This document shows, piece after piece, positions 28,697 through 34,813 of a stretch of DNA of 64,000 nucleotides. The notes beneath the pieces were generated by a model. It ran no database searches. It saw nothing but the letters and a program-made list of their open reading frames with translations, and was not told where the DNA came from. A program made the position numbers and the translations under genes. Where the stretch lies: sequence record MZ234015.1; one strand, given 5' to 3'. The DNA comes from Escherichia phage vB_EcoP-101114BS3. The first letter of the stretch is position 1. Each line of letters begins with the position of its first letter.

Positions 28697-28898
28697 ACAA
28701 CCTCTTCTTTGAGCTTAAAAAAGGACTCTCCTAAGAGAGCCAAGCTTTAAGGCCAATTAAATAGATATCACCCAATATCTGTGGATAACCTGCTCTTAAA
28801 ATATTCTATCCGACGGATGTTCGAGGATTATTCCTCTCCCTAGCATCGGCCCCATACGGGAAAGATTAAATTAAGTTTAGGTTAGTTGAGCCAGAATA

Positions 28899-28934
28899 GC
28901 TCACATAGCCCTCTGATACTCACAAGGGCTATAG
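28899..28934 (-). repeat. conserved stem-loop element, copy 1 (ATAGCCC-14 nt-GGGCTAT)
   Basis: Near-identical to 34537..34570; abuts stop of a GDxF-family gene. Confidence 0.5.
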
Positions 28935-28937
28935 ATG

Positions 28938-29186
28938 TTACTCTGTGGCTCCGTCGAATCGGAGGATTGCTGCTGGAACAGGGTATGCTTCCAGATCTTC
29001 ATCCAGTCGGTATAGATGCCCTGTACTTAAATTTACAGCTGTTACTGGCTTAGAGTGGCCTCCAGCCTGTATGGAAGGAACTCTGATAAAGAACTCTTCT
29101 GGATATTCAACAGAGTGGAACACACTTCCTGAATAAAGATCTTTTATTTTAGAAGTTTGTTTAGGAGTTTTATCAGCAATTTTCAT
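28938..29186 (-). CDS. small protein, GDxF-motif family (5 copies)
   Basis: Alignable with 34583..34813, 30577..30831, 30307..30573, 33392..33643. Confidence 0.5.
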   Translation of the reverse strand: MKIADKTPKQTSKIKDLYSGSVFHSVEYPEEFFIRVPSIQAGGHSKPVTAVNLSTGHLYRLDEDLEAYPVPAAILRFDGATE

Positions 29187-29447: not shown

Positions 29448-29861
29448 TTAAACAACGAATTGGAACGCTTCGTATCCAAACTTGTATAAGAAATCGTGTT
29501 TGAACTTTACTACACGACCACGATCGCGGAAAGCTTTCAGGCGACTGCTGAACCCAACCATTGGCTCAGGGTCAATAGGGCTACGAATCTTCATAGCTAC
29601 AGAGTGCAGCTTGAAGCGTTTACCAGTGCTACAGGCCATCATCACATACTCCATACGAGTAGTCCAGATGTTGAGCACCATGCTTGTTTTCTCCGCTGAC
29701 CAACCAGTCTTGCGGGCGATTTCTTTATGGACATTAAGCTCCAAAGGAAGAGGGAATTGCTTGTTGAATGAAGCCGGATATAGCTTGACCAGAAGGTCAA
29801 TGTTTTCTTTATACGTTAAGTAAGCCAATTTCTTGCTTACGTTAGGGAATTTCCCAGACAT
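29448..29861 (-). CDS. ProQ/FinO-domain-like RNA-binding protein
   Basis: LVKLYPASFNKQFPLPLELNVHKEIARKTGWSAEKTSMVLNIWTTRMEY parallels ProQ N-terminal domain pattern. Confidence 0.45.
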   Translation of the reverse strand: MSGKFPNVSKKLAYLTYKENIDLLVKLYPASFNKQFPLPLELNVHKEIARKTGWSAEKTSMVLNIWTTRMEYVMMACSTGKRFKLHSVAMKIRSPIDPEPMVGFSSRLKAFRDRGRVVKFKHDFLYKFGYEAFQFVV

Positions 29862-30059
29862 TTTTGAAGCTCCAAAACAGCGCCGAAAAGAGAGGCGTCA
29901 TAGTAGCTAAAAGGAGGAGAGAAGAGGGCTTATTTACTTGCCTTTTTCTGTCCGTTAATGTACCAGATAACTGAACCGTCAGGCTGTCGTTGACCGAAGC
30001 CTTTCAAGTTAACCATTTCTTCTTCAGAGTAGGCACGTTTTCTCACTGATTTTCTCCTG

Positions 30060-30576: not shown

Positions 30577-30831
30577 TTATTCCTTAATAGTTGCTTCAGC
30601 TTTAATAGGAATAACAGCAACATCTTTACGAGGTGCTGTCGCTCGACCTGTGTTAAGGCAGGCTACAAGTCTATGCTCGTCCGCACCCTTGATGCAGAGT
30701 CGAGTTGAGAACTCAGTAGACAGCAAGATGTACAAATCATCATCTTCACTGTTAGGGTACATGAAGCAATCCCCAAGTCGTAAAGCACTGAGAGGTATTG
30801 CACTCTTACCTGCTGGTTTATTAACTTTCAT
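30577..30831 (-). CDS. small protein, GDxF-motif family
   Basis: LRLGDCFMYPNSEDDDLYIL...VAVIPI. Confidence 0.5.
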   Translation of the reverse strand: MKVNKPAGKSAIPLSALRLGDCFMYPNSEDDDLYILLSTEFSTRLCIKGADEHRLVACLNTGRATAPRKDVAVIPIKAEATIKE

Positions 30832-31107
30832 TTTACCACCTTTAGTTATGGACCAATTTATGAGAGAACTCTCGGAAGAATGCTTTCATAAATAGGGGGA
30901 GGGGACGAATCCTCCCATATCCTATTAATTAATATTGCATGTAAGATCTAACAATTCGATGCTGTAGTGGATAGCGTAAAACGCTTACCGGCATTAAACC
31001 CAGCCCATGAGGGGCTTATGTGAATAAAATGCTCAACATTGAGCGGTTAGTTGATAGGAGATCTGAAGTCCTATCTCAAAGGACTCTCGTAAGAATCCTT
31101 CACGATA

Positions 31108-32193: not shown

Positions 32194-32269
32194 TGGTGCG
32201 CCCTACAGGACTCGAACCTGTAACCAATAGCTTAGAAGGCTACTGCTCTATCCGTTGAGCTAAGAGCGC
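32194..32269 (-). tRNA. tRNA-Arg (anticodon UCU)
   Basis: Hand-folded cloverleaf: 7-bp acceptor with one G-U, D arm GCTC/GAGC, anticodon loop CTTCTAA (U33, UCU, A37), T arm ACAGG-TTCGAGT-CCTGT, encoded CCA. Confidence 0.9.
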
Positions 32270-34536: not shown

Positions 34537-34570
34537 CTCACATAGCCCTCTGATAAACACAAGGGCTATA
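34537..34570 (-). repeat. conserved stem-loop element, copy 2
   Basis: Differs from copy 1 at only 2-3 loop positions; 12 nt after stop of 34583..34813. Confidence 0.5.
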
Positions 34571-34582
34571 AGTCGATGTTAC

Positions 34583-34813
34583 TTAACCATTAATATGAGT
34601 TACTTGAACATCAGGTACAGGGATAACTTCATGGTCTTCCTGTAATTGGAACAGTGTCCCCTGACTAAGACCAACCACACGATGCATATCGTTAAGTCTA
34701 GTGTCTGTCTTTAGGTAGACATTTTCAGAGTTAGTTGGTAAACGGAACACATCGCCCGGACGTAACTCACTGAGCTTTTTAGTAACAACTACAGAGAAGA
34801 GATTAATTTTCAT
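34583..34813 (-). CDS. small protein, GDxF-motif family
   Basis: LRPGDVFRLPTNSENVYLKT...VIPVP. Confidence 0.5.
   Translation of the reverse strand: MKINLFSVVVTKKLSELRPGDVFRLPTNSENVYLKTDTRLNDMHRVVGLSQGTLFQLQEDHEVIPVPDVQVTHING

Follow-up and report, generated by a model that had tools for sequence, protein, structure and literature searches.

The open reading frame at 29448..29861 (-) of the window (the whole stretch of 64,000 nucleotides that was analysed, from Escherichia phage vB_EcoP-101114BS3, MZ234015.1) encodes a 137-aa protein whose membership in the FinO/ProQ-domain family is supported by profile, family, fold and key residues. Judging from homology, we think it probable that this early-expressed FinO-domain protein grips the 3' ends of structured RNAs via Tyr72 and Arg82, protecting these RNAs from 3' decay and/or aiding their pairing. 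Among the RNA-binding regulators of bacteria, the FinO/ProQ proteins form one of the main classes, alongside Hfq and CsrA. The identification of the family is itself already known and not new. In UniProt, the ortholog from phage SU7 (A0A8F3C9D8, 96% identical) is named "ProQ/FinO domain-containing protein", as are the homologs from 7-11 and Aeromonas phages (these names surfaced in a fold search against a viral structure library), and distant homolog records carry labels such as "ProQ/FINO family protein", "proQ: RNA chaperone" and "sRNA-binding protein". Since the family assignment of the ortholog already stands in UniProt, the discovery is a modest one. A 2023 review of the family explicitly lists bacteriophage-encoded FinO/ProQ homologs (PMC9977716). 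The papers on Suseptimavirus and on the Gordonclarkvirinae of the BASEL collection make no mention of the gene, and a literature search for experiments or RNA-binding data on any FinO-domain protein of virulent or other phages found none.

A small FinO/ProQ-domain protein

The reading frame is a genuine gene, and selection on it is purifying. Its 137 codons, from an ATG start to the stop codon at 29448-29450, fit 29448-29861 (-) exactly, and the ORF list, the annotated CDS, the dN/dS ratio and the composition of the product all bear on it. A Shine-Dalgarno sequence, GGAG, can be read from the sequence 8 nt 5' of the ATG (29870..29873 (-)), and a ribosome-binding site is annotated at the equivalent position in SU7. 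At 100% identity, the window matches the genome of Escherichia phage vB_EcoP-101114UKE3 (MZ234017 / NC_070982), a 75.7-kb podovirus of the Gordonclarkvirinae (Suseptimavirus) and a relative of phiEco32; in MZ234017, the CDS at 29448-29861 (101114UKE3_098) is labelled "hypothetical protein". Between UKE3 and the SU7 ortholog, and for this pair only, dN/dS is 0.079, with 18 of the 25 nucleotide differences at third codon positions. The product is strongly basic (pI 10.0; 24 Lys+Arg vs 11 Asp+Glu), including its N- and C-terminal helices.

Taken alone, the protein matches Pfam PF04352 (ProQ/FinO) with E=1.1e-5 and 25.8 bits over residues 18-87 (29601..29810 (-)), a stretch that carries FP..F, PL, the N-cap Ser55, W66-T67, R69, Tyr72 and Arg82. 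The curated cut-off of PF04352 is 27 bits, which leaves the single-sequence score 1.2 bits short. A word-indexed homolog search gave the near-identical cluster only, and an exhaustive HMMER search over 1.84 billion representative proteins was required to arrive at 42 homolog clusters. PF04352 is matched by every one of the 38 homolog sequences of the resulting family alignment, A1 (best E=1.7e-20), and the nine nearest homolog clusters, near-identical ones excluded, score 35.9-73.5 bits against it, all above the cut-off. When the A1 profile was compared with all PDB sequences, seven matches were obtained, every one of them a FinO-domain entry: E. coli ProQ (5NB9, the N-terminal FinO domain; the best match, E=6.7e-15), RocC (best 4.4e-12, three constructs at ~5e-12), FinO (1DVO, 1.5e-9), Lpp1663 (6S10, 4.7e-9) and NMB1681 (3MW6, 3.7e-6). 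The family profile was needed for this, as a single-sequence phmmer search of the protein against PDB sequences found nothing. An NCBIfam search at E<=0.01 likewise found none, and in PHROGs, where only families of unknown function were matched, the protein is assigned to phrog_18901, "unknown function". The sub-cut-off Pfam score, the empty single-sequence searches of PDB and NCBIfam and the PHROGs label explain why the gene is "hypothetical" in GenBank and RefSeq.

The sequence-only reading had pointed to a ProQ/FinO N-terminal pattern over residues ~20-90. This pattern is indeed present, as Y28-P29, F32, P39-L40, S55, L63, W66 and Y72, and falls together with the Pfam match as well as with the A1 columns that do not vary (L24, P29, F32, L40, W66, R69 and Y72). 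The same reading had named the lack of any significant profile match as what would speak against it; significant matches were found, to PF04352 for the single sequence and to ProQ for the family. At the level of sequence, the resemblance of the protein to ProQ/FinO is well beyond chance.

An AlphaFold2 model built with A1 reached a pLDDT of 93.2 and a pTM of 0.87. It places helices at residues 10-27, 44-52, 56-66 and 70-79, a beta-hairpin at 81-95 and two further helices at 98-110 and 114-128; by model and Foldseek together, the whole predicted FinO-domain fold takes in residues ~10-112 (29526..29834 (-)). The 26 best Foldseek matches in the PDB are RocC, FinO, NMB1681 or Lpp1663, all with probability 1.00 and with a target-normalised TM of 0.5-0.7, and rank 27 stands at E~0.9. 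The predicted structure of the 137-aa protein is thus that of a FinO domain, and the ProQ/FinO-like identity first put forward from the letters alone is borne out by the single-sequence match, by a family profile that reaches FinO-domain PDB entries only and by a high-confidence model.

Could the resemblance be due to chance, the protein being something other than a FinO domain (e.g. a winged-helix DNA binder)? The Pfam score under the curated threshold, a weak match to DUF7343 (19 residues, E=7.8e-4) and the occurrence of winged-helix regulators among the fold-search matches could be read in this way. However, the winged-helix matches have E-values of about 0.9 or worse and a TM of 0.15-0.39, and DUF7343, which is under its cut-off and matched by 1 of the 38 family members, was rejected as an identity. 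Profile, family transitivity, fold and key residues all converge on FinO, and the Pfam matches of the family, the PDB profile matches, Foldseek and the scores of the nearest clusters effectively refute a chance resemblance, which we regard as hardly credible. A Pfam match to ribosomal protein L31, over a short stretch and under the cut-off, was also rejected.

The predicted architecture is a minimal single FinO domain followed by one extra basic C-terminal helix outside the canonical domain (residues 114-128, 29478..29522 (-)), whose motif F.K.F...FG..AF is common to part of the phage family in A1. The protein is devoid of the ProQ-type linker, of the Tudor-like C-terminal domain and of the long N-terminal helix of FinO, and therefore is not an ortholog of ProQ or FinO in the strict sense. 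ProQ strictly defined (the NCBIfam equivalog NF003434) is a protein of ~230 aa with a basic linker and the Tudor-like domain, compared to the 137 aa found here; FinO strictly defined (NF010317) is the plasmid fertility inhibition protein, which has FinP/traJ as its partner RNA pair, and the present gene is phage-borne with no FinP-like antisense RNA found. The closest likeness in layout is to NMB1681, the ProQ of Neisseria meningitidis, and to Lpp1663 of Legionella, both matched by profile and fold, which likewise consist of a single FinO domain with short extensions, are of similar size and have no Tudor-like C-terminal domain. These two are chromosomal, global RNA binders, whereas the 137-aa protein belongs to a virulent phage, bears the additional helix 114-128 and is without several of the basic hairpin contacts.

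The 3'-end pocket and the duplex-contact surface

The best structural match of the protein is the FinO domain of RocC from Legionella pneumophila (7RGU, with the RocR terminator; Foldseek E 2e-4 to 2.4e-3, probability 1.00). The crystal structure of RocC with RocR shows how the RNA is gripped: Tyr87 and Arg97 jointly secure the 3'-terminal nucleotide by its phosphate, and the helix N-cap engages successive phosphates along the hairpin (PMC9674577). Residues were compared through an explicit alignment with E. coli ProQ and L. pneumophila RocC, and counts per position were taken over the 38-member family. Tyr72 corresponds to ProQ Y70 and RocC Y87 and is found in 38/38 members; Arg82 corresponds to ProQ R80 and RocC R97 and is found in 36/38, and the 10-residue spacing of the two is identical to that of the ProQ and RocC pairs. 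Ser55 is the helix N-cap serine (RocC S70, ProQ S53), a position occupied by Ser or Thr in 28/38. Thr67 equals RocC T82, Arg107 equals RocC K119, and the "R-x-[DE]-Y" motif, R84-L-D-Y87 in RocC, reads R69-M-E-Y72 in the phage protein, with Arg69 (RocC R84) invariant and Glu71 near-invariant across the phage family. RocC and the phage protein thus have in common the Tyr/Arg pocket for the 3' nucleotide, the N-cap serine and the threonine. The hydrophobic core is kept as well (P29, F32, L40, W66 and L85), and the ProQ residues conserved in the phage protein are Y70, R80, S53, T65, L34, P22 and F25.

In RocC, R97M lowers RNA affinity more than 200-fold and abolishes repression (PMC9674577), and Y87F abolishes repression in vivo; since the Y87F protein is insoluble in vitro, the effect of this substitution may partly be on folding (PMC9674577). 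Substitutions of Y70 and R80 in ProQ abolish the RNA interaction (PMC7192607).

The surface that contacts the duplex in ProQ and RocC is another matter. ProQ K54 (RocC K71) is replaced by Ala56, ProQ R58 (RocC R75) by Ser60, ProQ R62 by Asn64, ProQ K35 by Glu41, ProQ D82 by Lys84 and ProQ G85 by Ser87. Where a basic hairpin clamp would be expected, the phage protein therefore presents Ala56, Ser60, Glu41 and Asn64, with Lys58 (RocC K73) as the sole basic residue, and the phage family as a whole is without a conserved R58-type residue. The beta-hairpin is also divergent, with K84, S87 and two additional residues. The near-universal beta-turn glycine before helix 4 (ProQ G37, RocC G52) is Asn43 in this protein; the family has Gly in 34/38 and Asn in 3/38. 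Asparagine is the usual replacement for glycine at left-handed turn positions. Within the phage family, Asn43, Lys84 and Ser87 are outliers, and the atypical nature of these three residues is probably the reason that the protein scores just under the Pfam cut-off.

The replaced positions matter for affinity in the characterized proteins: in RocC, R75D causes a loss of more than 100-fold and K71D of about 12-fold (PMC9674577), and in ProQ, K54A and R58A strongly reduce binding (PMC7192607). The canonical hairpin clamp is therefore presumably weakened or built differently in the phage protein. Because clamp residues affect affinity and not the fold, their loss lowers our confidence in canonical binding and leaves family membership as it is. 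We read the alignment as showing an intact 3'-end pocket beside a re-arranged duplex-contact surface; the protein is likely to bind RNA, in a mode that may not be fully canonical. As several of the basic RNA contacts of ProQ and RocC are missing, the term "RNA chaperone" is something that we infer for this protein and not a result.

The same substitutions could be taken to mean that the fold was kept and the job changed, the protein serving as a protein-protein adaptor or decoy (e.g. competing with host ProQ for its partners) or binding another form of nucleic acid. The loss of the equivalents of K54/K71, R58/R75, R62 and K35, the divergent beta-hairpin and the asparagine in place of the turn glycine all fit such a change, and mutating those positions cripples binding in ProQ or RocC. 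However, the two most conserved RNA contacts (Tyr and Arg) and the N-cap serine have been kept under strong purifying selection, and nothing in the genomic context suggests a protein partner. Furthermore, the family, although without R58-type residues, has an invariant Arg69 and is uniformly basic, which argues that the RNA surface was re-arranged rather than abandoned. A changed job is, in our view, unlikely.

We favor a mechanism in which the RNA-binding role is retained. The protein would be made from the early leftward cluster of a virulent phiEco32-like podovirus. The RNA bound would be a terminator hairpin that has a U-tail and a free 3'-OH: its last nucleotide would sit in the Tyr72/Arg82 pocket, to which Thr67 and Arg107 would also contribute, and its stem would be contacted by the N-cap Ser55 of helix 56-66 and by the basic helices at the N and C termini. 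The bound RNA, of phage or host origin, might then be shielded from 3' decay and/or helped to pair with a partner. It is plausible that the protein remodels host small-RNA networks or stabilizes phage transcripts, as the sequence-only reading had suggested, and it may affect infection.

An accessory gene in the early cluster

The gene is part of a series of small leftward genes with unknown functions and has homologs of phi32_93 and phi32_94 on either side. In phiEco32 itself, genes 93 and 94 are only ~106 bp apart and the 414-bp gene is absent. Searches with tblastn located the protein in ~20 Escherichia phage records (Suseptimavirus and TH34); no match came from the ~80 Kuravirus genomes, which have the flanking DNA in common with them. 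The gene is thus an accessory cassette, and its function can be considered accessory because the sister genus Kuravirus does without it. Orthologs are present in Bas86, Bas87 and Bas88 of the BASEL collection, whose Gordonclarkvirinae phages were obtained using E. coli K-12 in which the O-antigen had been restored. Replacing "hypothetical protein" by "FinO/ProQ-domain protein" would be possible in ~20 Suseptimavirus genomes, and PHROG 18901 would gain a function. Being small and confidently predicted, the protein offers an entry point to the FinO proteins of virulent phages in a host, E. coli, for which the ProQ regulon is mapped, and Kuravirus, where a clean gap of the size of the gene marks this site, provides a natural control.

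Distant homologs (28-41% identity) occur in Kolesnikvirus (phiEa21-4-like) phages of Erwinia, Hafnia and Salmonella, in Salmonella 7-11-like phages, in LAh-type phages of Aeromonas and in Shewanella phage KASIA. The phage homologs already annotated (A0A8F3C9D8 of SU7, the 96%-identical ortholog, and, among the distant ones, G0X555 of Salmonella phage 7-11, "proQ" of phiEa21-4-like Erwinia phages and the "putative RNA chaperone" of Aeromonas LAh phages) belong to the same family. Those of the 7-11 type bear an additional C-terminal domain of ~100 aa, and many phage homologs adjoin a pair of PRPP-synthetase-like and NAMPT-like genes, whereas the phage studied here has no such pair nearby.

Synteny supports a position of the gene in an early, leftward-transcribed cluster. 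In the phiEco32-like phage SU10, CDS 69-125 are assigned to the early class (PMC4281155), an early class has been demonstrated for phiEco32 (PMC8948821), and in phiEco32-like genomes this class is read leftward from sigma-70 promoters at the right end (PMC4281155, PMC8948821). The placement in the early region that had been proposed from the sequence is therefore consistent with the phi32_93/phi32_94 neighborhood, which belongs to the early cluster (PMC4281155, PMC8948821). The first intrinsic terminator downstream of the gene, GGCUCUC-UUAG-GAGAGUC followed by C and U6, lies at 28716..28741 (-), with its hairpin at 28741-28724; it was found by a terminator scan, is annotated in SU7, and its pairing is kept in eight phages. 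It is likely to be the 3' end of the transcript that carries the 137-aa gene. A "promoter" annotated in SU7, equivalent to 30827-30854 of the window, was not accepted as the promoter of the gene because it runs across the start codon of the following ORF.

A position among host-takeover genes invites the idea that the protein is directed at the host, hijacking or blocking host RNAs of the ProQ class (e.g. 3'UTR-derived sRNAs and type I antitoxin RNAs) during takeover, which would be a narrower version of the 3'-end binding proposed above. By profile, E. coli ProQ is the closest solved relative, and E. coli already contains a large pool of ProQ ligands (PMC7192607, PMC7367173). However, the divergent binding face argues against simple ProQ mimicry, and the gene is dispensable in a sister genus that infects the same host species. 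We regard host targeting as possible, if rather doubtful.

A conserved structured RNA downstream of the gene

A conserved, structured non-coding element of ~180 nt (28709..28886 (-)), which ends in the terminator at 28716..28741, closes the same leftward gene block 0.5 kb downstream of the 137-aa gene. It was recovered by blastn from 104 phage records in two families, including six Salmonella 7-11-like phages, which belong to a different family and share 72-76% identity; an exact-pattern scan of IMG/VR for the core of the RNA had given three contigs only, and the diversity was then gathered by blastn. In an alignment of eight sequences (A4), the consensus structure consists of 7 helices with 44 pairs, of which 10 show compensatory double changes, although A4 covers two deep lineages only and these changes represent few independent events. 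In the pairing control, 98.6% of cells are paired, compared to 37-59% when the partners are slid, and in the covariation control, 0 of 500 shuffles reach the observed value. The element has no family in Rfam, where the nearest match, to STnc100 (E=0.09, 21 bits), is far from the gathering score of 47. Its terminator combines a stem of 7 bp and a U6 tail with an A-rich 5' stretch facing the U-tail; these are features described for ProQ-type ligands, and the last of them is enriched there (PMC7367173). It is only because of this ProQ-type 3' end that the RNA can be named a candidate ligand of the protein.

Plasmid FinO and FopA, which are also FinO-domain proteins of mobile elements, act with one cis-encoded antisense RNA in the setting of conjugation or copy-number control, whereas the present gene belongs to a lytic phage; FinO (1DVO) is matched by both profile and fold, and the plasmid and phage homologs have been placed in one heterogeneous FinO/FopA/RocC branch (PMC9977716). 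RocC, for its part, extends into a long C-terminal region and has RocR as an sRNA dedicated to it. A search around the gene for a FinP/Inc-type cis-antisense RNA yielded no antisense RNA/target pair. The sigma-70 scan made for this search gave 3 promoter-like sites (vs 8.7 expected from shuffled sequence), the sole antisense terminator-like hairpin within the gene (29785-29800 (+)) is weak, with 6 pairs including 3 GC, and the only Rfam matches were a tRNA and, below the threshold, one to STnc100, with no FinP-like antisense RNA.

The ~180-nt element could instead be the RNA that the protein serves, in the manner of FinO/FinP or FopA/Inc, another narrower version of the proposed 3'-end binding. 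The conservation of the element in ~104 phage genomes of two families, the covariation of 10 of its 44 pairs, a terminator with the features described for ProQ-type ligands (PMC7367173) and the presence of both the RNA and a FinO homolog in 7-11-like phages would all be in keeping with a dedicated partnership. However, in ~80 Kuravirus genomes, phiEco32 among them, the RNA is present and no homolog of the protein is detectable; the RNA is thus independent of the protein, and co-location in a densely packed phage genome is weak evidence. Such a partnership seems improbable to us. It is more speculative still to imagine that an early FinO-domain protein with a rebuilt duplex face and its own ~180-nt RNA, with a ProQ-type terminator and a DnaA-box-like 9-mer, form a dedicated pair controlling a step of host takeover or replication; we offer this as a long shot. 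If true, it would be the first functional FinO-type RNA-protein pair in a lytic phage.

The 9-mer in question, TTATCCACA, is a perfect DnaA box and is held in an invariant unpaired stretch of the RNA element. It occurs twice in the window, compared to 0.75 times expected, and 19 of 100 shuffles reach two occurrences; the 9-mer is thus not over-represented, and only its invariance is worthy of note. The 240-nt gap that follows the next two genes downstream contains no coding sequence and is unusually conserved, being largely invariant in UKE3, SU7, TH34 and phiEco32.

A structured RNA element downstream of the FinO-like gene

At 28709-28886 on the minus strand, within a wider gap at 28697-28937, lies a structured non-coding RNA element that is conserved among phages. 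The element is found in 104 phage records in all: it is nearly invariant across the Gordonclarkvirinae, the subfamily of the source phage, and can still be made out in the Salmonella phages of the 7-11 type. Its consensus comprises 44 pairs in 7 helices, with compensatory changes at 10 of the 44; the 3' end is an intrinsic terminator, which is flanked on its 5' side by an A-rich stretch. No family in Rfam matched the element. Phage phiEco32 has the element and lacks the FinO-like gene.

Within the element lies a perfect DnaA-box 9-mer, TTATCCACA (28780-28788, minus strand), which forms part of an unpaired stretch, GGTTATCCACA, that is invariant in all eight of the aligned phages. Since the 9-mer is not significantly over-represented in the window by count (2 versus 0.75 expected), only its invariance is notable. 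Given this invariance, the element could also work as DNA, for example in replication.

A hairpin, UAUAGCCCUUGUG..UAUCAGAGGGCUAUGUGAG, occurs twice in the window, at 28900-28942 and 34537-34583, both on the minus strand. The two copies share 87% identity and each has a stop codon directly 5' of the hairpin. Most related genomes also carry it at two places, and the differences in the phiEco32 version are confined to the loop and the upper stem. The hairpin may be a signal for processing or termination.

Variants, distribution and neighbours of the FinO-like family

Some members of the FinO-like family form a subgroup of longer proteins, 227-250 aa in length: the homologs P0015, P0016, P0019, P0028 and P0031 together with the Salmonella phage 7-11 protein AEK82037 (2483-3187 of locus L007). 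At the C-terminus these have an additional domain of ~100 aa, in which a GNHP motif is conserved. The record of pSal-SNUABM-01 compares this domain to the T4 '12.8 kDa protein in the cd-pseT intergenic region'. When the viral structure library was searched by fold with a model of the FinO-like protein, Salmonella phage 7-11 appeared to encode two different FinO-fold proteins (G0X555 and G0X575), one of which is unannotated, and Cronobacter phage GAP52 to encode a further unannotated one (K4F7Y7).

The FinO-like gene is also carried by Escherichia virus TH34 (L006, MT446407), with a DNA identity of about 86% over the gene region. This phage is labelled Kuravirus in a record marked 'UNVERIFIED'; either the distribution of the gene does not strictly follow the genus label, or the label of TH34 is imprecise.

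In four other phage lineages, a pair of genes, one ribose-phosphate pyrophosphokinase-like and the other nicotinamide phosphoribosyltransferase-like, lies no more than 2 genes from the FinO-like homolog. The loci concerned are those of Hafnia phage SPARTY (L003), pSal-SNUABM-01 (L004) and Salmonella phage 7-11 (L007), and the metagenomic phage contigs L008-L010 (~98 kb). This pair may resemble a phage NAD+ reconstitution module. No such pair lies near the FinO-like gene in the window.

Other features of the gene cluster

A second long non-coding gap, of 276 nt (30832-31107, minus strand), lies upstream in the same gene cluster as the FinO-like gene, and holds two terminator-like hairpins on the minus strand, at 31044-31031 and 30916-30897 (GGGAGG...CCCTCCC). 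A tRNA-Arg gene with anticodon TCT is found amid small early genes at 32194-32269, also on the minus strand.
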